NCBI GenBank assembly: GCA_038325875.1
Contig: JBBQJL010000008.1
Span: 454 to 64,453, forward strand
DNA length: 64,000 nt
Direction: 5' to 3'
Origin: Candidatus Limnocylindrales bacterium
Lineage (GTDB): Bacteria; Chloroflexota; Limnocylindria; Limnocylindrales; CSP1-4
Shown: piece after piece, positions 1 to 43,408 of the stretch
Layout: each line of letters begins with the position of its first letter
Numbering within the stretch: the first letter of the stretch is position 1
Position numbers and translations under genes: made by a program
Notes under the pieces: model-generated
Databases searched by the model: none
What the model saw: the letters and a program-made list of their open reading frames with translations, nothing else
What the model was told of the DNA's origin: nothing

Positions 1-344
1 CGGAGCAGCACCCGGCGCTCATCGGCCAGGGCGGTCCCCAGCCGACCGATCGCATCGAGCGTCTCGGCCATCTCGAGGAACTGGCCGGGCTCCAGCCGAC
101 CGCCCCGCGCCGCCCGCTCGATCCACGGCCCGATGTCGTGGGCCGCCCCGATCCCGACGGTCGATCGCTCCTCGAGCAGGTCCCGGGTCTGGTCGGTCTC
201 ATCGAGCCCGCGCGCCACCACGACGAGGTCGTCCGACGGCCCGATCGACTCGGCCAGGCGACGGCCGGGGGCGAACGCGGTGAGACCGGCCAGACGCTCC
301 CGGATCGCCGGGAACTCGAGTAGCAGGAGGGACTTGTCGTCCAT
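1..344 (-). CDS. mutS2: Endonuclease MutS2, N-terminal part (runs off the window start)
   Basis: Hand translation from ATG 344: MDDKSLLLLEFPAIRERLAGLTAFAPGRRLAESIGPSDDLVVVARGLDET..., typical MutS2 N-terminus; cvpA-mutS2 linkage is common. Confidence 0.8.
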   Translation of the reverse strand, partial: MDDKSLLLLEFPAIRERLAGLTAFAPGRRLAESIGPSDDLVVVARGLDETDQTRDLLEERSTVGIGAAHDIGPWIERAARGGRLEPGQFLEMAETLDAIGRLGTALADERRVLL

Positions 345-360
345 CAGATGACCCTGAGCG

Positions 361-1056
361 TCAACGCTGCGACCCGGGCCCGGACGCCGCTCCGCTGCCC
401 GCGACCACGAACCGCCAGGGCAGGCTCGTCCACGGCTCACCGGCGTAGGTGATGCCGATCCGCGGCGTCGTCACGATCCGGGTCTCCGCCAGGCCGGTGG
501 AGGCAGGCTCGAGTCGGAGGCGGGACGACGGATCGCACAGGTCGAGTCCACCGAGCGACGGGTCCAGCCCGAAGGCTGCGCCGACGAGTCCGGGTCCGGA
601 TGCCAGACGAAAGGCCGGGGTCGATCCGATCCGGTCGGCGTCGCGGCCGACGGCCCGAGGGTCGTCCCGCAGGCGTCGTCGTGCCCTGGCGCGACGCAGT
701 CGGAGGGTCCGCGCAGCGTCGATCCCGGACTCGATCGCGACGGCTCGGATGAGGACCGCAGCCGGGCGGCCGGGCGGCTCGGTCACGACGTTGAGACAGG
801 TATGCATGCCATACACAAGGTACAGGTAGGCGTGACCTGGGTCCTGGTACATCACGGCATTGCGGGCCGTCCGGCCGAACCGCGCATGTGAGGCGCGATC
901 ATCCTCGCCGATGTACGCCTCGACCTCGACGATCCGTCCGGCGATCCGCCCGACCGTCGGGTCGTCCGCCACGAGGTGGCTGCCGATAAGTGCCCGCGCC
1001 GCCGCCAGCGTCGAGCCGGCCAGCAACTCGCGATCGAGCGTCGAGGGTCGGCTCAG
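361..1056 (-). CDS. mpg: DNA-3-methyladenine glycosylase (AAG/MPG family)
   Basis: GRIVEVEAYIG, YLYLVYGMHTCLNVV, AVLIRA, TPRIGI, PWRF motifs; start uncertain (TTG 1026 or CTG 1056). Confidence 0.9.
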   Translation of the reverse strand: MSRPSTLDRELLAGSTLAAARALIGSHLVADDPTVGRIAGRIVEVEAYIGEDDRASHARFGRTARNAVMYQDPGHAYLYLVYGMHTCLNVVTEPPGRPAAVLIRAVAIESGIDAARTLRLRRARARRRLRDDPRAVGRDADRIGSTPAFRLASGPGLVGAAFGLDPSLGGLDLCDPSSRLRLEPASTGLAETRIVTTPRIGITYAGEPWTSLPWRFVVAGSGAASGPGSQR

Positions 1057-1637
1057 GAGCGCGGGAAGAGGGCGCGGATGTCGGACGGTACGAGCGGGCC
1101 GGTGATCGCCACGAAGACCGGGATCAGGGTGCCGCGGAAGACCGCCGCCGTGCCCGACGCATTGACCGCACCGTACAGGTCCTTGAGCAGCATGACCTGC
1201 TGGTCGCCGATCCCGATCGGCAGCCGGAAGAACGAGTCAAGGATGGCGATCCCGCAGCCGACGATCAGGAGCGCCTCGAACACACCAAGGACCCCGCCGA
1301 GCAGCTCGTCCACGATCGGCCATTTGGCCAGGATCGGTGTCCGCTTGTAGAACGACTCGATGACGATGGCGAAGATCACCGAGCTCAGGATGAACATGAT
1401 CCCGAACGCGAGCATGTACGAGTACTCGCGCGGGAACTGAGTCCAGCTGTCGGCCAGGAAACTGCCCAGGCTGTCGCGCAGGTTGGCCGCCAGCAGGAAT
1501 GAGAAGGCGATCGAGGCGATCCCCAGCAACCGCCGGATCACCCCCTGGGCGAAGCCCAGCACGAACATCAGGACGCACAAGCCGATGACCAGCCAGTCGA
1601 AGGCGGCGGTGTTGGTGATCGTCTGGACGATGTCCAC
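1053..1637 (-). CDS. cvpA: CvpA (colicin V production) family membrane protein
   Basis: D-hydrophobic-GFxQG start, four TM segments, DELLGGVLG motif. Confidence 0.8.
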   Translation of the reverse strand: MDIVQTITNTAAFDWLVIGLCVLMFVLGFAQGVIRRLLGIASIAFSFLLAANLRDSLGSFLADSWTQFPREYSYMLAFGIMFILSSVIFAIVIESFYKRTPILAKWPIVDELLGGVLGVFEALLIVGCGIAILDSFFRLPIGIGDQQVMLLKDLYGAVNASGTAAVFRGTLIPVFVAITGPLVPSDIRALFPRS

Positions 1638-1736
1638 GCAGTCTCCTAAGACGGATCGAGACTCGCCCAGGCCGTGCCCATCGCGAGGCGGCGCAAGGGT
1701 ACCGCGTGACTATCGGCCCAACAAGCAGGACGATAG

Positions 1737-4253
1737 TCAGGTGCGCAGGTGCGCCCCGAGTCCGGCGGCCAGGGCGGATGTGATCGCACCGAGCTCGACG
1801 TCGATCTCCGAGTCGGTCAGCGTCCGGTCCGCGGCCTGGAAGACGAGGCGCTCGGCGAGGCTCTTCTCCCCCGCGCCGAGGGGAGTGCCGCGATACACGT
1901 CGAACAGGTGGACATCGACCAGGAGCGCGCCCGCGGCAGCCCGGATGACCGCATCGACCGCGCTTGCCGCCACCGACTCACCGACGACGACAGCGAGGTC
2001 TCGCGCGACCGCCGGGTGACGGACGATCGGCACCACCTTGACCACCGGGAGCTGGCCGTGGGTCAACCCCGCGATCGACAGCTCGGCGACGATCAACCGA
2101 TCGACCCGGATGTCCCATCGTTCGGCCAGCAAGGGGTGGAGCTCGCCGATCCGACCGCTCAGGCCGACCCGCCCGTCGTCGGTGCGAGCCAGAACCGAGG
2201 CGGCCCGACCGGGATGAAGAACAGGCTCATCGGTCAACGGCGTCCAGGCCGGCCGGCCGAACCCGAACCGGGCCGCCAGCAGCTCGACCAGACCCTTGAT
2301 GTCGTCGACGTCTGCCACGCGGCCGGGGCGGTTCCAGGCGACCGGCTCACGATTCCCGGCCAGGCCGATCGCCAGGCGCCACCACTCGGACGGGACCCCA
2401 TCCGTGCGACCGTAGCCTTTGCCGATCTCGAACAGGGCCAGGTCCGACCGACCGTTGCGGGCATTCGTCGAGACGATGTCGGCGAGGGTTGCCAGGAGGC
2501 CCCGGCGCATCACCGAGTGATCGGGTGCGATTGGGTTGACGATGGCGATGGGCGACCCTTCGGCGGAGCCCTCGCCATCGGCCGGTTCCGCCGTCGAGGA
2601 CCAGGCGAACGCCTCCAGATGCCGCTGCGAGACGAGAGCGTGGGTCACGATCTCGGTCACGCCAGCCCCGACGAGGGTCTCCCGGACGGCGTCCCGCAGC
2701 GCGAGTGGACTGGGGCTCCAGACCGGCGGGACCGTGTCCGGGAGGGTCGGCGGGATCGACTCGTAGCCGTGCACCCGGGCGACCTCCTCCGCGATGTCGC
2801 CTTCGATGGCGAGATCGCGCCGCCAGGTCGGGATGGTCGCGATCAGTGCGTTTCCCGCGGGGGCGACGACGGCGTACGGGTCCGCTCCGCCGGCGACCTC
2901 GATGCGCACCTCGCCGGACGCGGCGACAGTGTCGATCCCGGCCCGGGCAAGTACGCGGCGTTGGCCCTCCGGGTCGAGATCGAGACCGAGCAGGCGGACG
3001 ACCCGAGCCGGCCGGAACGCGACGGTCAGCTCGGCGGGCTCGTCCGGTGCACTATCGACCCGGCCGACGGCGAGGCTGCCGCCGGCCCAGTCGAGGATGA
3101 GCTGCGCGCAGCGGTCGGCGCCGATCCTGGCCATCCGCGTCTCCTGCCCCTTCTCGAAGCGCAGGCTGGCCTCCGATCGCAGCCCATAGCGCTGGCCAGT
3201 CCGGCGGATGCTGATCGGATCGAAGATGGCGGACTCGACGATGACCGCCGTGGTGCCGTCCGAGATCTCGCTCGAGACGCTGCCCATCACGCCAGCGATG
3301 CCGATCGGCCCGTTCGCGTCGGCGATGATCAGGGTGTCCTCGTCCAGCGTCCGAGCGACGTGGTCGAGGGTCTCCAGCCGCTCTCCGGCGCTGGCCCGCC
3401 GGACGACGATCCGGGCCTGACCGTCACGTTCTCGTGCGACCGCGGCGGCGTCGAACGTGTGGATCGGCTTGCCCAGCTCGAGCATCACGTAGTTGCTGGC
3501 ATCGACGACGTTGCTGACCGGACGCATCCCGGCGGCCAGCAGACGCGCCTGGACGGTTCGCGGCGAGGGACCTATCCGGACATCGCTCAGCCAGCGTCCG
3601 ACGAACCGCGGACACAGCCCCGGCTCGACGACGGTCACGGCCAGGCGCGCGGTGGTGGGATCGGCCGGGTCCTCGAGCAGCTCGATGACGGGCGGTCGGA
3701 CCGGGGCGCCGGTCACGATCGAGATCTCGCGGGCCAGGCCGAGGATCGACAGGGCGTCGCCGCGGTTGGGCTTCACGTCGATGTCCAGGACGATGTCACC
3801 GAACAGGTCCGCCAACGGGGTGCCGAGCGGAGTGTCGGCCGGCAGGATGAGGATCCCGTCGGCATCGGCGGTCAGCTGGAGCTCGTCGCCGGAGCAGAGC
3901 ATGCCGTTGCTGACGACGCCCATCTTGTCGGTCCGCTCGATCTGTCGACCGCCGGGCAGGACGGCGCCGGGCAGGGCGACCGGTATTCGTTGGCCGACGG
4001 CGATGTTGGTGGCGCCGCACACGATCTCGAGTGGCTCGCCGGCGCCCACGGTCACCCGGGTCAGTGACAGGCGGTCCGCTCGCGGATGCTTGTCCACCGC
4101 CAGCAGCTCGCCGACCACGACGTTCGTCCAGTCCGTTCCCCGTCGCTCGATGCCCTTGACCTCCATCCCGAGCATCGTCAGCTGCTCGGCGAGACGCTGC
4201 GGCTCGAGATCGACGTCGATGTAGTCGCGCAGCCAGGACAGGGGCACCCTCAT
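1737..4253 (-). CDS. pheT: Phenylalanine--tRNA ligase beta subunit
   Basis: MRVPLSWLRDY, IVCGATN, PNRGDALS, EASLRFEKG, C-terminal FDX-ACB domain (LFDVYRG...KSLA). Confidence 0.97.
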   Translation of the reverse strand: MRVPLSWLRDYIDVDLEPQRLAEQLTMLGMEVKGIERRGTDWTNVVVGELLAVDKHPRADRLSLTRVTVGAGEPLEIVCGATNIAVGQRIPVALPGAVLPGGRQIERTDKMGVVSNGMLCSGDELQLTADADGILILPADTPLGTPLADLFGDIVLDIDVKPNRGDALSILGLAREISIVTGAPVRPPVIELLEDPADPTTARLAVTVVEPGLCPRFVGRWLSDVRIGPSPRTVQARLLAAGMRPVSNVVDASNYVMLELGKPIHTFDAAAVARERDGQARIVVRRASAGERLETLDHVARTLDEDTLIIADANGPIGIAGVMGSVSSEISDGTTAVIVESAIFDPISIRRTGQRYGLRSEASLRFEKGQETRMARIGADRCAQLILDWAGGSLAVGRVDSAPDEPAELTVAFRPARVVRLLGLDLDPEGQRRVLARAGIDTVAASGEVRIEVAGGADPYAVVAPAGNALIATIPTWRRDLAIEGDIAEEVARVHGYESIPPTLPDTVPPVWSPSPLALRDAVRETLVGAGVTEIVTHALVSQRHLEAFAWSSTAEPADGEGSAEGSPIAIVNPIAPDHSVMRRGLLATLADIVSTNARNGRSDLALFEIGKGYGRTDGVPSEWWRLAIGLAGNREPVAWNRPGRVADVDDIKGLVELLAARFGFGRPAWTPLTDEPVLHPGRAASVLARTDDGRVGLSGRIGELHPLLAERWDIRVDRLIVAELSIAGLTHGQLPVVKVVPIVRHPAVARDLAVVVGESVAASAVDAVIRAAAGALLVDVHLFDVYRGTPLGAGEKSLAERLVFQAADRTLTDSEIDVELGAITSALAAGLGAHLRT

Positions 4254-4324
4254 CGGAACTGGCCGAGGAACCGGAACTCACCCTTTATGAACTGGTGCAA
4301 GTCGGCGATCGCGTCCATAAGCAT
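4250..4324 (-). repeat. Diverged copy of the pheS 3' end forming a 24-aa mini-ORF overlapping the pheT start
   Basis: MLMDAIADLHQFIKGEFRFLGQFR* vs PheS tail MLKHGITDLRLFLDDDLRFLSQFR* (12/24 aa, 56/75 nt, ungapped); GAGGT RBS 6 nt upstream; TGA overlaps pheT ATG. Confidence 0.75.
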
Positions 4325-4386
4325 ACCGGTACCTCGACCAGAGGTCGCCCATTCGGCCAACCAGACGGCGTCTGCTCCTGACCTCA

Positions 4387-4809
4387 TTAGCACTGCGGAT
4401 TGCCACTCCCGAGAGTGTCGGTCCCGTCGCGGTTCCAGAGCGAGACCCCCGCAGCTGCGTCGGCGCGGATCGGGCGGAGGCCGTTCATCTGGAGGGTCGA
4501 GCCGGTCGCGGTGGCCTTCCCAGCGCCGGCCGCGGCGATCACGACGCTGCACCAGAAGGCGTCGGCCTGCGCTTCGGTGGAGCCCGGCTTCAGGTACACA
4601 TTGACCCTTGCGGGATCGAGGAAGTTCGCCGAAATGTAGTCGACATGGTCGATGAGGTCCGAGCCCGATCCCCGGATCGCATCGGCGACCGACTGGCTCG
4701 GACCACCCTCCGCAGTACCAAAGATGGGAACGCAGCCTGCGAGGCTGATCAGTACCGCGGCGATCGCAACAACCTGGGTCGCGCGGAGTGTGCGGCAGGT
4801 TTGCATCAT
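4387..4809 (-). CDS. Hypothetical lipoprotein between pheS and pheT
   Basis: ATG overlaps pheS TGA (ATGA); basic N-region, hydrophobic stretch and LAGC lipobox; 140 aa. Confidence 0.7.
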   Translation of the reverse strand: MMQTCRTLRATQVVAIAAVLISLAGCVPIFGTAEGGPSQSVADAIRGSGSDLIDHVDYISANFLDPARVNVYLKPGSTEAQADAFWCSVVIAAAGAGKATATGSTLQMNGLRPIRADAAAGVSLWNRDGTDTLGSGNPQC

Positions 4810-5846
4810 CGGAACTGGCTGAGGAAGCGCAGGTCGTCGTCCAGGAACAGGCGCAGGTCGGTGATCCCGTGCTTGAGCATCTTCATCCGCTCGGGACCCA
4901 TCCCGAAGGCGAAGCCCTGGTAGCGCTCCGGATCGAGCCCACCCGCGCGGAGCACGACCGGGTGGACCATCCCCGCGCCGAGGATGGTCATCCAGCCCGT
5001 CCGCGCGCAGGCCGGACAGCCGACGCCGCCGCACACCAGGCACTCGACGTCGAGCGCCACCGACGGCTCGGTGAACGGGTAGTAGCCAGGCCGGAATCGG
5101 GTCTTCCGGCCAGGCCCGAACATCGCCCGGGCGAACTCGTCGAGCAGGCCGCGCAGGTCGCCCATCGTGGTTCCCTCGTCGACCATCAGGCCCTCGACCT
5201 GGAAGAACTCGAAGCCATGCGACGCGTCGACAGCCTCATACCGGAAGCAGCGACCCGGGAGCAACGCCCGGATGGGCGGTGCCGTGGAGCGCATCACCCG
5301 GATCTGGCCGGGCGAGGTATGGGTCCGCAGGAGGTAGCCCGGCAGGTCGACGTAGAGGGTGTCCCACAAGTCCCGGGCCGGATGGTCCGGTGGGATGTTG
5401 AGGAGCTGGAAGTTGGTGACGTCGTCCTCGATCTCCGGTGACTCGAAGACGGTGAACCCGAACCTGGCGAAGATGTCGGCGATCTCGCCCATCGCCTCCA
5501 GGCTGGGATGGAACGTCCCTCGGGCGACCGGTCGTCCGGGCGTGGTCAGGTCGATCGCCTCGCTGGCAAGGCGGGCATCGAGCGCGCCGGCATGGAGGAC
5601 GACGTCGCGCTCGGCGAAGGCAGTCTCGATCGCCTGGCGGATGGGGTTCGCGACGGCGCCGATCTTCGGGCGGTCTTCGGCCGGGAGGGCGCCGATCCCG
5701 CGCGAGACGAGGGTCAGCCTGCCCTTCTTGCCGAGGATGTCCACCTCGAGGAGCTGCAGGGCGGCCCGGTCGGGCGCCGCAGCGATGGCGCCGAGCGCGT
5801 CGTCGCGGAGCGCCTGGAGGTCTCGGGTGAGGTCGGCCAGGTCCAC
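4806..5846 (-). CDS. pheS: Phenylalanine--tRNA ligase alpha subunit
   Basis: HPARDLWDT, LRTHTS, FFQVEGL, YPFTEPS, GFAFGMGPER; GTG 5846 chosen as start. Confidence 0.97.
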   Translation of the reverse strand: MDLADLTRDLQALRDDALGAIAAAPDRAALQLLEVDILGKKGRLTLVSRGIGALPAEDRPKIGAVANPIRQAIETAFAERDVVLHAGALDARLASEAIDLTTPGRPVARGTFHPSLEAMGEIADIFARFGFTVFESPEIEDDVTNFQLLNIPPDHPARDLWDTLYVDLPGYLLRTHTSPGQIRVMRSTAPPIRALLPGRCFRYEAVDASHGFEFFQVEGLMVDEGTTMGDLRGLLDEFARAMFGPGRKTRFRPGYYPFTEPSVALDVECLVCGGVGCPACARTGWMTILGAGMVHPVVLRAGGLDPERYQGFAFGMGPERMKMLKHGITDLRLFLDDDLRFLSQFR

Positions 5847-5856
5847 CGGGCGCGAT

Positions 5857-6207
5857 CTAGGCGGTGCGCGCGGCCTCGGCGATCTTCCCGAAGGTCGCGG
5901 CATCGCGGACGGCAAGGTCGGCGAGGATCTTGCGGTCGATCGCGATGTCCGCCCGCTTCAGTCCGGAGATGAAGGCGCCGTAGGTCAGACCGTTGAGTCG
6001 CGCAGCCGCGTTGATCCGGACGATCCACAGCTCGCGCATCTGGCGCTTGCGCTGCTTCCGGTCCCGGGTCGCGTAGGCGAGCGCGTGGAGGGTCGCCTCG
6101 CGCGCCGGCTTGATCAGGCGCGACTTGGTACCCTTCCGGCCCTCAGCGGCGTTCAGGAGGCGCTTGTGGCGCTTGTGGGCCGTGACGCCCCGCTTGACTC
6201 GTGCCAT
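5857..6207 (-). CDS. rplT: 50S ribosomal protein L20
   Basis: MARVKRGV...[23 protein letters not shown]...[10 protein letters not shown]. Confidence 0.98.
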
Positions 6208-6222
6208 GAGGTGAGTGTGCTC

Positions 6223-6426
6223 CTACTTGCCGAGGTACGGGAGCAGGCGGCGGACCTGCTTCGCATGCTCGGTCCCGATGATCGTCTTGCCGGCGTAACG
6301 TCGGGTCCGACGCGACGACTTGATCTCGAGGTGGTGGCCACGCCAGCTGTTGACCCGGTACGCCTTGCCGCCGCCGGTCACGCCGATCCGCTTGGCGGCC
6401 GCCTTGTGCGTCTTCATCTTTGGCAC
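6223..6426 (-). CDS. rpmI: 50S ribosomal protein L35
   Basis: (V/M)PKMKTHKAAAKR...LLPY; lies between infC and rplT. Confidence 0.95.
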   Translation of the reverse strand: MPKMKTHKAAAKRIGVTGGGKAYRVNSWRGHHLEIKSSRRTRRYAGKTIIGTEHAKQVRRLLPYLGK

Positions 6427-6433
6427 GGTCGCC

Positions 6434-7480
6434 TCACTCTCCCGCTGAAGCCGGGGCGGGCGCCCCTGACTCGGTCGTCTTCCTGATCCGGGCCGGCCTT
6501 GGCGCCGGTTTGGTCTCGGCGGCGGCCACCGTGGCCGGGCCGTCGTTCGTGGCAGTCTTCGGTGGCGCCTTCGCTCGCGCTGTCTTCGGTCCGGCGGCCG
6601 GACTCGCCGGTGCCTTCGCAACGCCCACCGTCACGGACGGCTTCGCGGCCGTCTTCGGCAGTGCTTCGGTCGGCGCCACCACAGCGGCCGCCTCCGGAGC
6701 AGCCTCCGTCGGTGCCGGGGCGGTGGTGGTCGGGACGACGGCCTCAGATGGTACTTCGACTTCGGCCGGTTCCGCAGGCGCAGCCTGAGTGGGGACTGCG
6801 GCAGCGACTTGCCTTGCGCCTGGAGCCGGAGCGTCGGCGGCCGGTATCGGAGCGGGGGCGGCCGGAGCTTGAACCGCGTCGGTCGTGGTGGACGGCTCGA
6901 CGTCCGCTTCGGTTGGCGCGGTCGCATCGAGTTCGGTCGGGTGTTTCGACACGTGCTCGATGACCTTGGGTTTGTGCGTCGACGCCACCGTGATGTGCAT
7001 CGACTTGCCTTCGAGGAGCGGTGCTCGCTCGACCGCGCCGTGGTCCTTGATCTGCTCGGCGAACTTCGCCAGGAGGGCTCGTCCGATCTCCGGGTGGGTC
7101 AGCTCTCGACCGCGGAACTGGACGGCGACCTTGATCCGATCCCCTTCCTCGAGGAACTGGATCGCCCGACGGACCTTGGTGTCGAAGTCGCCCACGCCGA
7201 TCTTCGGCTTGAGCCGGACTTCCTTGAACGTCACGGAGCGCTGCTTCCGCTTGGCTTCCTTGTCCCGCTTCGTCAGCTCGTACTTGTACTGCCCGAAGTC
7301 GAGGAACTTGACCACCGGCGGTGACGCCATGGGCGCCACCTCGACGAGGTCCAACCCCCGTTCCTGCGCCATCTCAAGGGCCTGCGGCGTCGGCATGACG
7401 CCCAGCTGGGCTCCTTCTTCATCCACGACCCGGACCTGGGGGATCCGGATCATCTGGTTGATGCGCAGGTCTCGGCTGAT
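6434..7480 (-). CDS. infC: Translation initiation factor IF-3 with long Ala/Pro/Thr-rich C-terminal extension
   Basis: RINQMIRIPQVRVV, LDLVEVAP, DFGQYKYE, FRGRE; probable ATC start at 7480 behind an AAGGGG RBS. Confidence 0.93.
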   Translation of the reverse strand: MSRDLRINQMIRIPQVRVVDEEGAQLGVMPTPQALEMAQERGLDLVEVAPMASPPVVKFLDFGQYKYELTKRDKEAKRKQRSVTFKEVRLKPKIGVGDFDTKVRRAIQFLEEGDRIKVAVQFRGRELTHPEIGRALLAKFAEQIKDHGAVERAPLLEGKSMHITVASTHKPKVIEHVSKHPTELDATAPTEADVEPSTTTDAVQAPAAPAPIPAADAPAPGARQVAAAVPTQAAPAEPAEVEVPSEAVVPTTTAPAPTEAAPEAAAVVAPTEALPKTAAKPSVTVGVAKAPASPAAGPKTARAKAPPKTATNDGPATVAAAETKPAPRPARIRKTTESGAPAPASAGE

Positions 7481-7559
7481 GGTCGAACCCCTTCGTGCGT
7501 GCTCTGGCGGTGGCTGACGCTCGCGCAGGCGCAGTCCGGCCCGGCCGAGGTCGCAGGCG

Positions 7560-7589
7560 AGGATAGCACAGGGGTTCAGCGGCGGCCAA
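7560..7589 (-). promoter_or_regulatory. Putative sigma70 promoter for infC-rpmI-rplT
   Basis: TTGGCC-18 nt-TATCCT with extended TGn on the minus strand. Confidence 0.45.
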
Positions 7590-7614
7590 TCAGGACCCCG
7601 CGTCCAGGCGCCGG

Positions 7615-9450
7615 TCAGAGCTGGCGCGATGCGGCCTCGGCGGCGAGGCGGTCGGCCAGGGCTTCCCAGGGGATCGCCTCCTGCTGCTCGCCGCGAGCCG
7701 CGTCCCTGGGTCGCGCGGCCACCGACCGCGCTTCCACTTCCCGGTCGCCGAGGACCAGCATGTACGGAACCTTCTGCTCCTGGGCAAGGCGGATCTTGTT
7801 CTGCATCCGGTTGTCCGACTCGTCGACCTCGACCCAGAGCCCCCTCGCCCCGAGGATGCCGGCCAGCTCGGCAGCGGCCGGGATGTGGCGGTCGGCGATC
7901 GGGATGATGACCGCCTGGACCGGCGCCAACCAGAGCGGGAAGGCACCGGCGAAGTGCTCGACCAGGATCCCGATGAAGCGTTCGAGCGAGCCGTAGATCG
8001 CCCGATGGATGGCGATCGGGCGCTGCGGCTGGCCGTGCTCGTCGATGTAGGTCAGGTCGAATCGCTCGGGCAACATGACCAGATCCGCCTGGATGGTCGC
8101 CATCTGCCACTCGCGGCCGAGCGCATCGTCGATGTAGATGTCGATCTTCGGCGCATAGAACGTGCCATCTTTGGGCTTGACCACGTAGGCGCCCTCGGCA
8201 CGATCGAGGGCGGTCTTGATGAACGCCTCGGCCCGTTCCCACAACGCCGGATCGCCGAGGGCCTTGTCCGGCCGGGTGGCGAAAGCGAAGCGGGGTTCGA
8301 GACCGAACCAGCCGTACGCCTCGCGGACCTCGCCGAGCATCGCCTCGATCTCGTCGATCAGCTGGTCGGGACGGACGTAGACGTGGGCGTCGTCCTGGAT
8401 GAACTGGCGGACCCGGGTGAGGCCGGACAGCGTGCCCGAACGCTCGTTGCGATGGAGGCGACCGTACTCATTGAGCCGGAGCGGCAGGTCCCGGTACGAG
8501 CGGATCCTGGAGCGGTAGATGAAGGTCGACTCAGGGCAGTTCATCGGCTTGAGGCTGAACGTATGGCCCTCGGCCTCGAGCTTGAACATGTTGTCGTCGT
8601 AGTGGCCCCAGTGGCCCGACTGCTCCCAGAGCTTCTTGTCGACCAGGATCGGCGTGCTGATCTCCTGGTAGCCGCGCCGTTCCTGGAGTTCGCGCATCGC
8701 GCCCTCGAGGGTTCGCCAGATGCGCTGGCCCTTGGCGTGCCAGAAGGCCGAGCCGGGCGACACGTCGTGGAAGCTGTACAGGTCGAGCTGGACGCCCAGC
8801 CGGCGATGGTCGCGCTTCTTGGCCTCGGCCCGCCGCCACAGGTAGGCATCGAGCTGCTCCTGGCTCGCCCAGACCGTGCCGTAGATCCGCTGGAGCATCG
8901 GCCGCTTCTCGTCGCCCCGCCAGTAGGCGCCGGCCACGCTGAGCAGCTTGTACGGTCCGATCCGACCGGTGCTGGCCACGTGCGGGCCCTTGCACAGGTC
9001 GATGAACGGACCGTGGGCGAAGGTGGACGTCGGCGGCATCGGCTGGCCGCTGGCAGCCGACTTCGCGGCGAGGTCGTCCAGGATCTCGACCTTGAACGGC
9101 TGGTCGCGCTCGACGAAGAACGACCGACCCTCGGCCGGTGAGAACTCGCGCCGGACGATCGGGTGATCCGCGGCGATGCTCGACGCCATCCGGGCCTCGA
9201 TCGCAGCGAGGTCGTCGGGGGTAAGCGGGCGGGCCAGTTCGAAGTCGTAGTAGAAGCCATCGGCGATGGCCGGGCCGATCCCGAGCTTCGTCCCCGGGAA
9301 GAGGTCCATCACGGCCTCGGCCATGACGTGCGCGGCGGAGTGCCGCATCGGCCCCAGCTCGTCGGCGGCGCCCGCATCGAGGAGCTCGTCGGCCGAGCCC
9401 CGTTCGGGCGCCTCGAGGAAGTCCTCCTCGTCGTGCACCTGGTTGGTCAT
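7615..9450 (-). CDS. thrS: Threonine--tRNA ligase
   Basis: RHSAAHVMAEA, DLCKGPHV, RDHRRLG, LKPMNCP, IHRAIYGSLERF; ATG 9450 behind GGAGGT. Confidence 0.97.
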   Translation of the reverse strand: MTNQVHDEEDFLEAPERGSADELLDAGAADELGPMRHSAAHVMAEAVMDLFPGTKLGIGPAIADGFYYDFELARPLTPDDLAAIEARMASSIAADHPIVRREFSPAEGRSFFVERDQPFKVEILDDLAAKSAASGQPMPPTSTFAHGPFIDLCKGPHVASTGRIGPYKLLSVAGAYWRGDEKRPMLQRIYGTVWASQEQLDAYLWRRAEAKKRDHRRLGVQLDLYSFHDVSPGSAFWHAKGQRIWRTLEGAMRELQERRGYQEISTPILVDKKLWEQSGHWGHYDDNMFKLEAEGHTFSLKPMNCPESTFIYRSRIRSYRDLPLRLNEYGRLHRNERSGTLSGLTRVRQFIQDDAHVYVRPDQLIDEIEAMLGEVREAYGWFGLEPRFAFATRPDKALGDPALWERAEAFIKTALDRAEGAYVVKPKDGTFYAPKIDIYIDDALGREWQMATIQADLVMLPERFDLTYIDEHGQPQRPIAIHRAIYGSLERFIGILVEHFAGAFPLWLAPVQAVIIPIADRHIPAAAELAGILGARGLWVEVDESDNRMQNKIRLAQEQKVPYMLVLGDREVEARSVAARPRDAARGEQQEAIPWEALADRLAAEAASRQL

Positions 9451-9469
9451 CGTCATACCTCCGCGAATC

Positions 9470-9712
9470 ATGAAGCCTCTCGCCTTCGACAGGACGAGAG
9501 GCTCAGCTCCCGCGGTCCCACCCGCCTTCGCGGCAGGGCACCAGATGGTCCGTGCTGCCGCACGCTCGTGCCGCGCTAACGGGCGGATCCCGGACCGGTT
9601 CACCGGCCACTCGCGGGTGGTGCCTCCCAGGCTCGGTCGTCGCGGCTCTCAGCGCTGCCGCAGCTCTCTGCGGACCGTCAGGCCCCGGGTGCGTGTCCCG
9701 CTCGAAGCGTTC
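9470..9712 (-). promoter_or_regulatory. T-box riboswitch (Thr specifier ACC) upstream of thrS
   Basis: Minus strand: AGAGA and GCTGAGAG stem I elements, GGAGGC-ACC specifier loop, T-box AAGGCGGGTGGGACCGCG, then GAGCCTCTCG...CGAGAGGCTTC hairpin. Confidence 0.85.
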
Positions 9713-9716
9713 GATC

Positions 9717-9793
9717 TGGTGGGCGACACTGGGCTCGAACCAGTGACCTCTTGCATGTCAAGCAAGTGCTCTAACCAACTGAGCTAGCCGCCC
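9717..9793 (-). tRNA. tRNA-Val(GAC)
   Basis: GGGCGGCTAGCTCAGTTGGTTAGAGCACTTGC-TTGACAT-GCAAGAGGTCACTGGTTCGAGCCCAGTGTCGCCCACCA. Confidence 0.97.
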
Positions 9794-9893
9794 ATGCGGC
9801 GCGGTTCCGTCGCGCCGCCCGCGAATGATACCGCAGGGTCGTTCGGGAGCGCCGACCGGGTCAGCCGGCGCTCCCTGACCGTGATCGGTGGGC

Positions 9894-10454
9894 CTACGGT
9901 GCGGCGATGAACCAGATCCCTCCGACATTCTGGCCGTTGGAGTCGCCGGCCTTGGTGTCGGCCGCGAAGTAGTACAGCGGGGCACCGTTGTAGGTCACCT
10001 GGTCGGTCCCGTCGTCGCGCTTGATCGTGGCCAGCGTGCCGCTCACGCCGGCACCGGCCTTGAGCGTGTCGGCGGCGGTCGTCATGAACGGCGGCCAGTT
10101 GGTCGCGCAATCGCCGTTGCAGACGCTCTTGCCGGGCGTGGTGTCCTTCTTGAAGGTGTACAGCGTCTTGCCGCCCTCGCCGGCCAGGGTCTTACCGGCG
10201 GCCACGGTCGCGACGGTGACCTCGTAGGTCTCACCGGCGTCCGACGGCTCGACACTGGGCGGAGCTGCCGAGGCGGGGGCGACGGAGGCCGGAGCTGCGG
10301 TGGCAGGTGCGGCAGAGGCGGGCGCTGCCGTCGGGGCCGCGGTCGCCCCGCTGCTCGAGCAGGCAGCGACGAGGATGAGGGCGGCTCCCGCGACGGCCAA
10401 CCCCCGGACGAGCCCGCGCGGGCGATCGGATGCGGTCATTGGCCTGTTCTCCAC
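9894..10454 (-). CDS. COG4315-type secreted lipoprotein (Lipoprotein_15 repeats)
   Basis: VAAC lipobox, GKTLYTFKKD...CNGDCATNWPP, QVTYNGAPLYYFAAD...G..W. Confidence 0.9.
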   Translation of the reverse strand: MENRPMTASDRPRGLVRGLAVAGAALILVAACSSSGATAAPTAAPASAAPATAAPASVAPASAAPPSVEPSDAGETYEVTVATVAAGKTLAGEGGKTLYTFKKDTTPGKSVCNGDCATNWPPFMTTAADTLKAGAGVSGTLATIKRDDGTDQVTYNGAPLYYFAADTKAGDSNGQNVGGIWFIAAP

Positions 10455-10563
10455 TTCGTCGCCGGACTTGGATCACCGGCGGATGACAGGCGATACGTCG
10501 TGAGCAGTCGGTCGGTTCCCTGCTGGTCCTTCGCGGATCGCCGGGTTCGGTCACTATGGCCGA

Positions 10564-11493
10564 GTGGACGACGGCGCCGACTATCAGCTGCTCGACATCG
10601 GCGACCTACGCCGGCTGGAGCGGTTCGGGTCGCGGATCGTCGACCGCCCAGCGCTCGCCGAAGGTGGCTTCCCAGTCCGGGATCCGACCGCCTGGGCGAC
10701 CGCCGACGCGAGGTTCGAGCCGCACGGCGACGCAACGACGGGACGATGGGTGACGGTCGATCCTTCGATCGAGACCCCCTGGCAGGTCGCCGTCGGCGGG
10801 ATCACGTTCGAGGTCCGGCTCGCGCCGTCGGGGCAGGTCGGCTGTTTCCCGGAGCAGGCATCGACGTGGGCCTGGCTGACCACCTGGCTCGACGCGGCCG
10901 GAACGCGCCACGACGGCGGGGCGACCCCCGATGAGACTGTTGAAGCGGCGCTCGAGCTGACCTCGACCGGACGGCCGCCCGTCGAGGTCCTCGACCTGTT
11001 CGCCCACACGGGCGGCTCGACCCTGGCGGCGGCGCGAGCCGGGGCACGCGTCGTCCACGTCGATGCCGGGCGACCGTCGCTTGCGTGGGCCCGCCGGAAC
11101 GCGGAGCTGAATGGGCTGACCGACGCGCCGATCCGCTGGATCGTCGACGACGCAGCGGCGTTCGTCCGGCGGGAGTCCCGGCGCGCTCGGCGCTACGACG
11201 GGATCGTGCTCGACCCGCCGAGCTTCGGGCATGGTCCAGGCGGCACCGCGTGGAGGCTAACCGACGATCTCGCGGATCTCCTCGCCGGTTGCGCCGAGCT
11301 GCTGGTCCACGGTCCGGCGTTCGTCGTCCTGTCGGCGCACACGCCGGGGTTCGGCGCGGAACGGCTCGGCCAGGCGCTGTCCGATGCGCTCGGACCGCGG
11401 GCCGGCGGGCGGATCGACGTCGACGAGCTGAGCATCGCGGCCGGCAGCGGTCGCGTCCTCGGCCTCGGTGCGGTCGCGCGGTGGAGCCGATGA
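10564..11493 (+). CDS. SAM-dependent methyltransferase (RlmI/RlmK-like)
   Basis: YQLLDIGD..RLERFG, VGCFPEQ, VLDLFAHTGG, LDPPSFG. Confidence 0.88.
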   Translation: MDDGADYQLLDIGDLRRLERFGSRIVDRPALAEGGFPVRDPTAWATADARFEPHGDATTGRWVTVDPSIETPWQVAVGGITFEVRLAPSGQVGCFPEQASTWAWLTTWLDAAGTRHDGGATPDETVEAALELTSTGRPPVEVLDLFAHTGGSTLAAARAGARVVHVDAGRPSLAWARRNAELNGLTDAPIRWIVDDAAAFVRRESRRARRYDGIVLDPPSFGHGPGGTAWRLTDDLADLLAGCAELLVHGPAFVVLSAHTPGFGAERLGQALSDALGPRAGGRIDVDELSIAAGSGRVLGLGAVARWSR

Positions 11494-12308
11494 CCCCGCC
11501 CAGCGACTCGATCGCCAGCCCCGCCAACCCCCGGGTCCGGGCCGCAGCTGCACTCCGTGATCGGCGAGAGCGTGACCGGACCGGGCGGATCCTCATCGAC
11601 GGAGCGCGCGAGCTGCTTCGCGCGCTCGATTCGGGGGTCGTCCTCGAGACCCTGTTCGTGTCCGAGCGGATGTGTCGCTCGGCTGCCTGCCTGGAGCTGC
11701 TAGAACGGATCACTCCCGCCGATCGGCGGCGGGCGGCGGTCAGCGAGACCGCCTTCGCCAAGCTCGCCTTCGGGGATCGTGCCGAAGGTGTCGTCGGCGT
11801 GGCGATCCGGCCCACGACCGACCTCGACACATTCGATCCGCCGGCTGAGCCTCTCCTGGCAGTGGTCGAGGCGGTCGAGAAGCCCGGCAACCTCGGGGCG
11901 ATCCTGCGCAGCGCCGACGGCGCCGGCGTCGACGGGCTCATCGCCGCCGACCCGCGCACGGACCTGTACAACCCGAATGCGATCCGGGCCAGCCTCGGCA
12001 CGATCTTCAGCGTCCCGCTCGCGTCGGCCTCAAGCGCGGCCTCACTCGCCTGGCTGCGGGCGCGGACGATCCGGGTGGTCGTCGCACGGGTGGACGGCGC
12101 CGAGCTATACGGCGCGACCGACCTGACCGGGCCCCTTGCGATCGTCCTCGGCAGCGAGGCGGATGGCCTGAGCGACACGTGGTCGGGCACCGACGTGGTG
12201 CCTGTCCGACTTCCGATGCTCGGCGCGGCCGACAGCCTGAACGTGTCGGCGGCCGCCGCGGTTCTCCTTTATGAGGCGCGTCGCCAGCGAACCCTCGCCG
12301 GCCGCTGA
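11490..12308 (+). CDS. TrmH/SpoU family RNA methyltransferase
   Basis: EKPGNLGAILRSA, LGSEADGL, DSLNVSAAAAVLLYE. Confidence 0.92.
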   Translation: MTPPSDSIASPANPRVRAAAALRDRRERDRTGRILIDGARELLRALDSGVVLETLFVSERMCRSAACLELLERITPADRRRAAVSETAFAKLAFGDRAEGVVGVAIRPTTDLDTFDPPAEPLLAVVEAVEKPGNLGAILRSADGAGVDGLIAADPRTDLYNPNAIRASLGTIFSVPLASASSAASLAWLRARTIRVVVARVDGAELYGATDLTGPLAIVLGSEADGLSDTWSGTDVVPVRLPMLGAADSLNVSAAAAVLLYEARRQRTLAGR

Positions 12309-12316
12309 ACCAGCGC

Positions 12317-13972
12317 TCAGGCCTCGAAGACCGTCCGACCGTCCATCAGCACGAGCCGTGGGCGGACCGTCGCCAGCGGCCCGCCGACCTCGACGGGCTC
12401 CGCGAACGCCGCGCCGGGCAGGACGACGAGATCCGCCCGGTGGCCCGCGACCAGACGTCCGCGATCCCCTTCTCCCGCCGACAGCGGGCCGTCGAGGCAG
12501 GTCGCCCGAATCGCCCGGGCGAGGGTCAGGGCCTCAGCCGGACCGAACCGACCGACACCGGCAGGCCACGAGGCATCCGCCCGGGTCACCGCCATGGCGA
12601 TGCCAGGCCACGGATCGAGCGGCTCGACCGGCGCGTCGGTCCCGAACGGGATGAGCGCACCAGATCCGGCGAGCGAGTGCCAGCGATAGCCTGATCGCTC
12701 GGCTCGATCGCCCCACAGGTGACGGGCCTGGGCGGCATCGCTCCGCAGGTGGACCGGCTGGATCGACGCCGCGATCCCGAGCCGGCCGAAGCGCGGCAGG
12801 TCGACCGGGTCGACGAGCTGGACGTGCTCCACGCGCGGCACGAGCCCATGTCGACCGACCTGCGGCTCGAGCGCGTCGAGCGCGGCGCGTAGGGCGGCGT
12901 CCCCGATCGCGTGGATCTGCGTCGCCAGCCCGGCGTCCGAGGCTCGCCGGGTCAAGTCGGCCAGGATCTCGGGCTCGGTGATGAAGATGCCACGCTCGCG
13001 GCCAGGTTCAAGCGGGCGATCGGGCTCGAACGCGAACGGTTCGAGGAGGGCAGCGGTCCGCGACCCGAGCGAGCCGTCCGCGAACAGCTTCTGCCACCCC
13101 ACCCGCGCCCGGGGATCGGGCCCGGCGCCCAGGGCCAGGCCGCTCCGGAGGCCGCGCAGTTCGGCGCTCCCCACCGCCTCCTGGCACAGGCACGCGTGGA
13201 CGCGGAGCGGTAGCCGCCCGGCCTCGTCGAGCCGGGCATAGGCCGCGAACGGCCCGCTCAGCTCGGCGTCGGGCACCAGGTCGCCCGGATCGTGGACGGC
13301 GACGACGCCCAGCGCCAGAAGGTCGCGGGAGATGAGCGGGAGGGCCTCGACCAGGGCGTCCGCCGTCGGTGGCGGGACGCGGCCCGCCACCATCCTCGTG
13401 GCCGACTCGTGGAGGACGCCGGTCGGCGTCCCGTCGGGCCGGCGTCTGATCTCACCGCCGGCCGGGTCAGGCGTCCCAGGTCCGACGCCGGCGAGCGCGA
13501 GAGCCGCCCGACTCGCCCACAGCGAGTGATGGTCGTGCGCCCACAGGGCGACCGGCCGGCCCGGTGCGATGCCAGCCAGGTCGTCGGCCGTCGGCCAACC
13601 GCCCCAGCGGTCTGATTCCCAGCCCTGTCCGAGCAGCCACGCATCGGGATCGACCAGCGCGAGGTGGGCGGCTGCGATCCGGGTCAGGCCGAGGGCCAGG
13701 GTCGGCTCGTCGGATAGGTCGACCTGATCGGCGGCGATGGCCGCCTGGCCCAGGTGGAGATGGGCGTCGGTCAGTCCCGGGATCGCCACCTCCTCCGGCG
13801 ACAGGGCGATCCGTCGCGTGTGCGGGTCGGTCATCGCCTCGACCTCGGCTCGCGGGCCGGCCGCCACGACGCGTCCGCCCGCGATCGCCAGCGCCTCGAC
13901 CCAGCCGAACCCGCTCTCGCCAGCGAGCGTGGCGATCCGTCCTTCGACGACGAGGTCGGCGACGGTGCTCAC
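12317..13972 (-). CDS. Amidohydrolase 3 family protein (YtcJ-like)
   Basis: PGLTDAHLH, KLFADGSLGSRTA, IHAIGD, RVEHVQ, FGTDAPVE. Confidence 0.9.
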   Translation of the reverse strand: MSTVADLVVEGRIATLAGESGFGWVEALAIAGGRVVAAGPRAEVEAMTDPHTRRIALSPEEVAIPGLTDAHLHLGQAAIAADQVDLSDEPTLALGLTRIAAAHLALVDPDAWLLGQGWESDRWGGWPTADDLAGIAPGRPVALWAHDHHSLWASRAALALAGVGPGTPDPAGGEIRRRPDGTPTGVLHESATRMVAGRVPPPTADALVEALPLISRDLLALGVVAVHDPGDLVPDAELSGPFAAYARLDEAGRLPLRVHACLCQEAVGSAELRGLRSGLALGAGPDPRARVGWQKLFADGSLGSRTAALLEPFAFEPDRPLEPGRERGIFITEPEILADLTRRASDAGLATQIHAIGDAALRAALDALEPQVGRHGLVPRVEHVQLVDPVDLPRFGRLGIAASIQPVHLRSDAAQARHLWGDRAERSGYRWHSLAGSGALIPFGTDAPVEPLDPWPGIAMAVTRADASWPAGVGRFGPAEALTLARAIRATCLDGPLSAGEGDRGRLVAGHRADLVVLPGAAFAEPVEVGGPLATVRPRLVLMDGRTVFEA

Positions 13973-15000
13973 TCGGGTGGTCCGGGCGGTCCGGGCGGCC
14001 GCGAGGTTCCCGGCGGCCCGGCCAGGAACCGAGCCAGGTCGGGGCCGCGCAGACCGGCCCCGAGACCGACCGACAGGGCGATCCGCGCCTTGGGCGCGCT
14101 GAGCGTGCCGGCCAGCATGGCTCCCGCCCGGACCCAGGTCGCGCCGCCGCCCGGGAACGCGTAACCCGTTCCGGCCGCGCCGGACGCGGTTCGACTGGCC
14201 AGCACGAGCGGGATCCCCGCGGCGATCGCCCGCTCGCCGGCGGCCAGCAACGCCGAGGACGTGTTGCCCGATCCGGTGGCCGCCACGACGATCCCGGCCG
14301 GCTCCAGCCCGATCGCGGCGTCGAGGATACGCGGATCCATCCCGACGGTGGCCGTGACGATCGGGATCGGCTCGGCCAGGAAGCGCGCGTCGACCGGTCC
14401 GCGCCGTGCTTCCCGCTCGCGCTCGAGCGTGACCCTTCCGCGGTCGAGTCGTCCGAGACGGCCGGCGTTGAGGCTGCGGAACGTGTCGAGTGCGCTGGTG
14501 TGCGTCTTCGTGACGTCGTCGGCGGGTTCGATCGTCCCGGCCAGGACGACCACCGCGCCAGCGCCCTTGAGGGCCGGTGAGGCGGCGGTCGCGACGGCGT
14601 CACGCAGGTTGTCGGGCCCGTCGTAGTCGAGCTCGGTCGCGTTCCGCATCGCGCCGGTCACCACGACCGGCTTCAGGGCGTCGAGCATGAGATCCAGGGC
14701 GAACGACGTCTCGTCGATCGTGTCGGTGCCCTGGACCACGACCACCCCATCGACTGTGGCGTCCGCCAGGAGCGCTCGGACGTCCATGGCGACCGCGAAC
14801 AGCTCGGTCATCGTCCAGTGGCTGGCGGGCTTCAGGCCGCGGTCGATGGCGACAACCTCGGCGATCCGATCCAGTCCGGGTGTGCGCGCCAGGATCGCCG
14901 CTCCGTCGAGGGCCGGCAGCGCGCCGCCCGCGAGCGGGTCGACGATCATGCTGATCGTCCCGCCGGTGAACACGACCGCGACTCGTCTCAGCGCTGCCAC
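13969..15000 (-). CDS. Asparaginase/glutaminase family protein
   Basis: TGGTISM, QGTDTIDET, VTGAMR, DGPDNL, TKTHT; GTG 15000 behind GGAGG. Confidence 0.9.
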   Translation of the reverse strand: MAALRRVAVVFTGGTISMIVDPLAGGALPALDGAAILARTPGLDRIAEVVAIDRGLKPASHWTMTELFAVAMDVRALLADATVDGVVVVQGTDTIDETSFALDLMLDALKPVVVTGAMRNATELDYDGPDNLRDAVATAASPALKGAGAVVVLAGTIEPADDVTKTHTSALDTFRSLNAGRLGRLDRGRVTLEREREARRGPVDARFLAEPIPIVTATVGMDPRILDAAIGLEPAGIVVAATGSGNTSSALLAAGERAIAAGIPLVLASRTASGAAGTGYAFPGGGATWVRAGAMLAGTLSAPKARIALSVGLGAGLRGPDLARFLAGPPGTSRPPGPPGPPE

Positions 15001-33301: not shown

Positions 33302-33461
33302 GTGGCCTACTCCCTACGGCTCGCCGGAGCGTCCCGCCACTGCGGCGGTTCGATCGCGTGCCCTCGATTGCACTTCTGTGCGTCGCTGTCTCCCCTGCCT
33401 GGCGACGGTTGCGCTGCGGACATGGGTCGCGGACGTACCGAGCTACGCTCCTCGCCGGACA

Positions 33462-33477
33462 AATGTAACATCGTTAC
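33462..33477. promoter_or_regulatory. Operator AATGTAAC-N3-GTTAC, copy 1
   Basis: AATGTAACATCGTTAC just downstream of a minus-strand TTGACA...CACAAT promoter. Confidence 0.7.
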
Positions 33478-33882
33478 GATTGTGCCGGGCGCGGCCCTTT
33501 GTTGTCAATTCGCTTCTACCCGGAGCCTGCTTGGAATTCTGCGGTACTGCAGTGTCGCGGCTCTGTTCGGCCAACGGTCGGACGACCCTCCGCCTCCGCC
33601 GGATGGTCAGCCTGAAGCGGGCACTCAGGGACGCCAGGAGAGAGACGCGAGTGGGTCCAAGCCAGCGGGCGTGCGATCGGGACTCGACGCGCGGGAGCTG
33701 AAGCGACGCTGGATCGCCTTAGTCTTTAGTGAATCCCAAGCCCTACTCGATAGCCCACTTCGATTCTCGGCTCGAGCCCTAGATGGGTGGCATGATCCTG
33801 GCGGGCCGCCCAAGGCAAATCAGACGTTTCAGGCTCGACCGACCTCGACAGCCCACCGGACTAGGTGCGGACTCTCCCGCTG

Positions 33883-43374: not shown

Positions 43375-43408
43375 GACGGCCTCGCTCTATCCGCTGAGCT
43401 ACAGGGGC
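43333..43408 (-). tRNA. tRNA-Arg(CCT)
   Basis: GCCCCTGTAGCTCAGCGGATAGAGCGAGGCC-GTCCTAA-GGCCTGCGTCGGGGGTTCGATTCCCTCCAGGGGCACCA. Confidence 0.95.

Follow-up and report, generated by a model that had tools for sequence, protein, structure and literature searches.

e14 and phage 21 integrate in the 3′ end of icd and supply a replacement tail. The subject of this article is an insert of 552 nt located between pheS and pheT, the normally adjoining genes for the two subunits of a heteromeric enzyme, in a 64,000-nt stretch of contig JBBQJL010000008.1 from a Candidatus Limnocylindrales bacterium (assembly GCA_038325875.1; the genome is called G000 here and the whole 64-kb stretch the window). The insert includes a gene for a predicted lipoprotein, a short open reading frame (ORF) of 45 codons, ORF45, and, at the end of the latter, a diverged copy of the pheS tail.

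Several described systems share features with this locus. MIRUs (mycobacterial interspersed repetitive units) insert at a start codon and carry an internal ORF coupled at −4, which is thought to limit downstream harm (Supply et al. 1997, as summarized in PMC12548453); their handing on of ribosomes is described only as likely (PMC12548453). In integrons, ORF-11, ORF-17 and ORF-18 (attI1) and short ORFs of attC sites promote translation of the next gene; the peptide sequence matters little, and translation has been proposed to melt a hairpin (PMC8876359). CIMEs (cis-mobilizable elements) are described as decayed integrative elements which keep their att sites and cargo (PMC7563491). Patches of 3 to ~100 bp derived from elsewhere in the genome are attributed to SPDIR (short-patch double illegitimate recombination), a process described as very rare (10.1101/2023.11.22.568220).

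Judging from the arrangement of the locus and from its relatives, we consider it probable that the insert is what is left of a serine-recombinase element which integrated at the stop codon of pheS and has since shrunk; its frames overlap in an unbroken chain which would hand terminating ribosomes on to pheT. The pheS gene is intact and carries the domains PF01409/PF02912 (Pfam). Its 3′ end reads ...CAGTTCCGATGA and finishes at 4806, and the same ATGA forms the start of the 140-aa lipoprotein ORF (4809-4387), two in-frame ATGs of which overlap the pheS stop, at −4 and −1; the sequence-only reading of this DNA had given the same start and length and had counted correctly. The lipoprotein stop in turn overlaps the ATG of ORF45 in a TAATG (4389-4385), and ORF45 continues in the frame of the tail copy to a TGA overlapping the pheT ATG at 4253. 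The order is pheS (−4) lipoprotein (−1) ORF45 (−4) pheT, each joint being −4 or −1 (Table 1). Among 400 shuffles in which length was also varied at random, 3% gave a strict chain of this type, with −4 and −1 overlaps only. Shine-Dalgarno (SD)-like energies, calculated as duplex energy with an assumed anti-SD motif (no 16S 3′ end was recognized in the assembly), were 0 kcal/mol for the lipoprotein start, −1.5 for that of ORF45, −2.4 for pheT and −7.2 for an ATG at 4324 within ORF45. The lipoprotein has no SD-like signal and no further start codon ahead of its hydrophobic stretch, and a scan for the sigma-70 consensus revealed no promoter-like site in 4100-6300.

Table 1. Features of the pheS/pheT junction, in coordinates of the 64-kb window of G000; pheS, the lipoprotein gene, ORF45, the tail copy and pheT all lie on the minus strand.
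Feature	Position	Strand	Remarks
pheS	4806..5915	-	longest ORF; real start probably further in; TGA within ATGA 4809-4806
Left-arm (attL-like) motif, decayed (probable)	4792..4805	-	now codons 2-6 of the lipoprotein
140-aa predicted lipoprotein	4387..4809	-	lipobox LAGC26 after hydrophobic stretch
hisG patch, 48 nt, in frame	4461..4508	-	source G000:C38:20037-20084
45-codon candidate relay ORF (ORF45), MRSGADAV...FLGQFR*	4250..4387	-	TAATG overlap at start, ATGA overlap at stop
Predicted RNA hairpin, 83 nt	4259..4341	-	stops 5 nt short of pheT start
Diverged copy of pheS 3′ end, 75 nt	4250..4324	-	56/75 nt vs own pheS
pheT	1737..4253	-	838 aa, intact; no SD-like signal before start (−2.4 kcal/mol)

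The usual state in relatives is an overlap of the two genes by 4 or 1 nt. Within the genus, 11 of 19 genomes gave one contiguous match over the two genes, 7 of 19 (including G000) a split match and one none, while among 29 relative loci examined 22 were contiguous, six had inserts and one was unresolved. A tree on ~500 flanking columns, whose bootstrap was not fully settled, places G000 together with its five closest relatives, all of them empty-site genomes, at 100/99 support. The empty-site relatives and the variable slot foreseen from the sequence alone were thus both found, with unrelated inserts occupying the same joint.

Order-wide, 391 of 401 genomes gave a match (two unpublished genomes are counted here and used nowhere else). 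Junctions were gathered from split matches, from alignments of unusual length among the best 150 of these 391 matches and from a pattern scan, none of which selects for frame. Duplicates were merged and G014, in which sequencing error seems to have shifted the frame at both gene ends, was left out. This gave 70 distinct gapped junctions. The 59 shorter than 300 nt include 51 of length 3n+1, the length at which an ORF can begin on the pheS stop and close on the pheT start, against five of 3n and three of 3n+2, an excess whose significance a binomial p overstates, related genomes being no independent samples. By sequence, the 34 inserts of 20-299 nt sort into 13 clusters. In the 12 non-repeat clusters all 13 inserts are single ORFs bridging the two genes, from stop to start (nulls from shuffling 0.01-0.34 each, the lowest being too low since shuffling destroys the inherited overlap), and inserts of 175-256 nt are open end to end (null 0.05-0.10 each). 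The remaining cluster, a repeat with 21 members, includes 16 single ORFs and five chained via a nearby start. Insert classes are scattered over the tree, requiring 44 changes against 53.9 when shuffled.

Similar designs occur with longer cargo. L189 has the same −4, −1, −4 design as G000, with a pheS-like relay of 8 residues; L178 (−4, −4, −4) has a mini-ORF followed by cargo whose frame crosses the right arm and finishes on the pheT start; and G004 (+3, −4, −1, −4) combines an MFS gene with a 41-codon relay. The check proposed earlier, for other cargo followed by pheS-tail copies in relatives, turned up other cargo with relay frames (G004, L189 and L178) and no long tail copy, the 15 other inserts of at least 150 nt having no more than 23 nt of pheS-like sequence. 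Since relatives use other sequence for their relays, it is the frame that seems to matter and not the pheS peptide, and a long duplicated pheS tail is not the general solution. Taken together, the comparison suggests that insertions at this joint survive mainly when ribosomes can still pass to pheT, and the comparative support for such a candidate coupling filter is strong.

Some further junctions are described here in their own right. In L178, L184 and L185/L186 the frame of a ~210-aa cargo gene now continues across the right att arm and closes on the pheT start with a pheS-like QPEQFR or QPELFR. Gaps shorter than 20 nt (e.g. L106-L127) are 3n+1 in 22 of 25 cases, those of 4, 7, 10 and 13 nt being mostly 3-6-codon ORFs from pheS stop to pheT start. 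The dispersed repeat of ~80 nt is present at 21 pheS/pheT junctions, at loci L142-L171 and at gene ends elsewhere (15 of 41 genomes); in G000 it follows two tRNA-like sequences (C33:33240-33319 and 33436-33518). Its relay frame is broken in 9 of 27 copies elsewhere and in 2 of 21 at the pheS joint (by eye; L156 omitted as a poor match), a weak comparison, with some one-base changes possibly sequencing errors, which is not used as evidence.

The tail copy in G000 is ungapped (56/75 nt; blastn E 4e-12), and nhmmer with 65 pheS tails recovers it with E 7e-11, extending no more than ~8 nt further upstream. Its divergence is uneven: the last 21 nt are identical at 20/21 positions, and the first 54 nt hold 18 changes (36/54; Fisher p 0.016). 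Re-measurement returned the figures given previously for this copy, which has no internal stop. Selection at the peptide level was considered and rejected, as the copy differs from pheS by 7 synonymous and 12 non-synonymous changes, a distribution like that of neutral change (p 0.28). At three positions the copy has the allele of close empty-site relatives and not that of its own pheS, and it is closer to G015 and G016 (58/75) than to its own pheS (56/75), so that it represents a displaced original pheS end or an old duplicate. Joined to the pheT start, the copy gives back a sequence like that of an empty site. In G000, 71 nt ahead of pheT are pheS-like, against no more than 23 nt in the 15 other inserts of at least 150 nt. 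A donor/recipient mosaic of pheS and pheT was also tried as an explanation, and sliding identities gave no clear signal.

The GAGGT just upstream of the copy lies in a 16-nt arm which is the inverse of the 3′ end of the copy at 14/16 positions, a value reached in 0 of 1000 shuffles and not exceeding 11/16 in 15 other inserts, and 4341-4259 is predicted to fold as one hairpin of −37.4 kcal/mol (z −4.3, for a window picked after the hairpin had been seen). With a fixed window before pheT, z is −3.6 in G000 and −2.1 or weaker in 52 other junctions, and 5 of 129 background windows reach −3. The predicted cost of opening the pheT start region, 25.8 kcal/mol, is the third highest of 53 junctions. 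Ten of the 19 changes from pheS make pairs in this fold, three keep pairs and six are unpaired (a partly circular count), and random changes attain the hairpin energy in 1-2% of 3000 trials. The hairpin has no match in Rfam, and may have arisen by concerted repair between the inverted arms or by selection.

Satellite-like elements with a serine recombinase are located between pheS and pheT in G012 (8565 nt), G180 (9191 nt), G333 (7817 nt) and G344 (7505 nt). The recombinase gene adjoins pheT, points away from it and encodes ~430 aa where whole; it is in pieces in G012 and G344. G380 and G321 also have it, where a contig ends, and G284 retains a fragment. The proteins carry a Resolvase domain (PF00239, E 6.5e-18 and 2.2e-20 in Pfam), with no Pfam match past residue 159 of the 435-aa recombinase at E 0.01, and no relative of that of G180 was found in viral contigs. 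The G012 element encodes a small terminase, AAA_25 and helix-turn-helix (HTH) proteins, and a lipoprotein as the first gene after the left arm; its 10 ORFs scanned against Pfam included no relaxase family and no conjugation genes. When the arms are joined in reconstruction, they make up an inverted repeat with the TT of CAG-TT-CCG at its centre. The family crossover, as we infer it, lies 9 nt before the pheS end. This explains short duplications, not one of 75 nt.

In G000, the 14 nt following the pheS stop match the left-arm matrix at offset 0 (p ~5e-4), and because of this match the insert is probably a decayed serine-recombinase element. The matrix was derived from six element arms, p was taken against 100,000 random genome positions and three offsets were tried; training arms left out singly gave p 0 to 5.5e-4. 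The left arm also scores in G072, G277 and G238 and not in eight other tested junctions. In a scan of metagenomes it identified 13 loci, six of which reach pheT and are single-gene relics of 180-708 nt.

Additional observations concern recombinases and duplicated junctions. In L060 (G284), a relic of 2.3 kb, a fragment of the recombinase is accompanied by an ORF of 420 aa on the opposite strand, glycosyltransferase-like by eye. In G277 another pheS end precedes a left arm (L069, C76), and G283 has two identical-scoring pheS-pheT junctions (L140, C2 and C3), in each case by duplication or binning contamination. In the window itself, 41821-43374 (+) encodes a canonical large serine recombinase (Resolvase, Recombinase and zinc ribbon) whose end overlaps a tRNA-Arg gene (43333-43408), a separate integrated island. 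No Cas1 was found in the 87%-complete assembly, so off-target spacer integration is unsupported.

The cargo gene encodes a predicted bacterial lipoprotein, with a type II signal peptide and a lipobox cysteine. At least 82 relatives were found at E<=1e-3, and the consensus of 78 aligned members retains GC at the lipobox position, with Cys87 and Cys140 at least 90% conserved. Pfam has no family for it, a weak HisG match corresponding to the captured patch. A structure model built from two sequences was poor (pLDDT 44), while that from 78 sequences (pLDDT 78.7) predicts a helix-strand-strand-helix-strand core, a common small alpha/beta arrangement as modelled: Foldseek returned nothing at E<=0.001 (top match, FliF ring motifs, E 0.014) and VIA-align nothing at Z >=8 (top Z 5.8, rmsd 3.6, 86 aligned). 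The only clear homologue in the genus is in G003, in an unrelated region, and an alignment of the protein itself (P0001) with its closest homologue, P0003, confirmed no relative in metagenome contigs. A surface function is possible; in our reading the protein is a passenger now held in frame as a member of the chain. Both of its halves align in order with P0003, relative to which it has a 19-aa loop insertion formed for the most part by the hisG patch. This patch matches the host hisG at 45/48 nt, the first 34 exactly, and has no extended microhomology at its upstream border; a comparable match elsewhere in the genome was found for 11 of 300 random segments of the same size. In relatives, hisG lies ~15 kb from pheS.

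We propose that a recombinase element would have entered the G000 lineage at the pheS/pheT joint and been reduced to its left arm and a single cargo gene, that of the lipoprotein, its right end then being replaced by a 75-nt piece of pheS tail. The replacement would most likely have occurred via illegitimate recombination with an empty allele or short-patch capture, as must separately be supposed for the hisG piece; the same structure would also result if a circle had been excised aberrantly and had re-entered via the pheS tail. As pheT has no SD and lies behind a predicted hairpin, it would have come to depend on ribosomes translating ORF45, with selection acting on the frame and not on the peptide. 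A spacing of ~20 nt is reported to all but eliminate reinitiation, for which the final 15 nt of the upstream gene are enough (PMC10666635); this fits the conserved last 21 nt of the copy and the neutral drift of the rest.

Several observations weigh against this scheme. As regards the filter, loose-chain nulls for inserts of 20-299 nt are 0.25-0.78, and four 'independent' inserts (G334, G391, L104 and G201) fall in one clade, all sampled members of which carry inserts. In five of the seven inserts of 0.5-2.3 kb (G072, G381, G213, L080 and G284) the chain from pheS is incomplete, and in L184 and L185/186 its first link is missing, G072, G381, L184 and L185/186 being linked from cargo to pheT. 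The four full elements put kilobases between the two genes, so that pheT is expressible without an unbroken chain, and many insert carriers have an SD-like signal before pheT (~−6 kcal/mol). The frame filter could be real and serve another purpose, preventing an ORF from overrunning the pheT start or avoiding polarity, with ribosomes reinitiating at the pheS ATGA regardless and pheT perhaps also initiating by itself. The long inserts which manage without a chain and the SD-like signals favour this explanation, as does the 3n+1 bias of the shortest gaps, most of which direct coupling should span anyway. We nevertheless hold it unlikely: an early stop in the insert would be equally safe, yet inserts of 175-256 nt are open throughout, and pheT of G000 has no SD.

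As regards G000 itself, a loose chain (−8 to +15) arises in 27% of shuffles, and a 24-codon copy has a probability of 0.57-0.70 of containing no stop after 19 random changes, so that the open copy by itself is no more than chance would give. The overlaps might then be luck in a neutral relic, a decayed element with a drifting tail copy and a pheT served by its own signals; the neutral pattern of changes in the copy agrees with this, and the ATGA overlaps at both ends would be inherited automatically. Such a relic is quite unlikely given the strict-chain null of 0.03 and the strong 3n+1 excess across the family, and a self-sufficient pheT sits poorly with the lack of a promoter-like site in the sigma-70 scan and with a start region predicted to be among the hardest to open. 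The mini-ORF relay advanced earlier from the G000 sequence is supported in so far as a frame is retained far above chance over unrelated inserts; it requires amendment in that the relay has 45 codons from the TAATG and not 24.

As regards the element, the left-arm match of G000 is among the weakest to a matrix of only six sequences, and the right arm is not detectable (score −13.9, p 0.15), the pheS-tail copy being in its place. No cognate recombinase is present in the 87%-complete assembly, where the only match has 26% identity, and none lies in the insert. The G012 cargo lipoprotein shows no similarity to P0001 at E 1e-6, and a tail copy of such length is found in no other genome. The sequence-only reading had instead envisaged gene capture with no integrase involved and a 24-codon duplicate to which ribosomes are drawn by a GAGGT of its own. 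In favour of this, the assembly has no cognate recombinase, GAGGT (4335-4331) lies 6 nt before the ATG at 4324, where the duplex energy is −7.2 kcal/mol, and the copy begins exactly there. However, GAGG is complementary to CCTC within the tail copy and belongs to the 14/16 inverted arm (shuffle P <0.001), and GAGGT and the ATG at 4324 are both paired with the copy in the predicted hairpin, while the left-arm motif here and the elements at the same site in relatives point to a recombinase origin. We regard this explanation as very improbable; the relay start is most likely the TAATG overlap. An assembly chimera on the pheS or hisG repeat is extremely improbable, since, even though Logan contigs stop within the exactly matching 34 nt of hisG and none of those listed runs across the whole insert, contigs of run X1 (possibly the source sample, so that Logan is an independent assembly and not an independent sample) match without a mismatch over 4145-4504 and 4479-4855, covering the hisG patch borders and both gene junctions, the tail copy differs from pheS at 19 sites and both lipoprotein halves are in order against P0003: as far as tested, the insert is not an assembly artefact.

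A bolder extension of the relay scheme would make the pheS/pheT overlap of Limnocylindrales a recombinase landing pad and one-gene cassette slot, in which single att-flanked genes are exchanged by a recombinase working in trans, expressed via the ribosome chain and protected in frame by the dependence of PheT; the hairpin made from the pheS copy would lock pheT to the relay and render the lipoprotein conditionally indispensable. To this we assign a low probability.

The family offers one essential junction invaded many times, by recombinase elements, single-gene relics, a dispersed repeat and small fillers. With surviving inserts strongly biased to one frame, it forms a natural replicate series for the value of coupling between the subunits of a heteromeric enzyme, and bears on whether throw-away ORFs truly pass ribosomes on. 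The relay principle itself is already known from MIRUs and integron ORF-11. The target site and att motif of the serine recombinase family were not found in print: a literature search which did not extend to most subscription journals returned no report of pheS/pheT as an integration site or as attB of a serine recombinase, nor of a translationally coupled insertion between the two genes, and the main text of an article on Limnocylindria genomics (PMC13212565) mentions neither pheS, pheT, a recombinase nor translational coupling.

Compared with the systems introduced above, the 48-nt hisG and 75-nt pheS pieces lie within the size range of SPDIR patches, from which the hisG piece differs in the absence of extended microhomology at its upstream border. 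Like a CIME, the locus has cargo left at a site-specific integration site with the recombinase gone and the left arm retained; it differs in that the right arm is undetected and the right end resembles the empty host site, and the parent element scanned (that of G012 only) showed no conjugation genes. With e14 and phage 21 it shares a diverged duplicate of the target 3′ end at the far side of the insert, including some ancestral alleles, although a crossover 9 nt before the pheS end does not account for 75 nt. As in integrons, a short ORF in a recombination site would serve translation of the next gene, but here that gene is an essential host gene and the relay would be fed by a stop/start overlap and not by its own SD, and no integron integrase, attC or cassette array was seen (no integrase-like ORF was recognized in 1-15000; genes and Rfam scan only). 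The closest likeness in arrangement to MIRUs is the coupling of ORF45 to pheT at −4, and the ~80-nt repeat at the junctions of 21 genomes behaves in a MIRU-like way. Unlike a MIRU, the G000 insert is no dispersed repeat, matching only the pheS tail and hisG in its own genome, and its architecture is that of a two-step chain via a cargo gene, an att-like arm and a pheS-derived relay.

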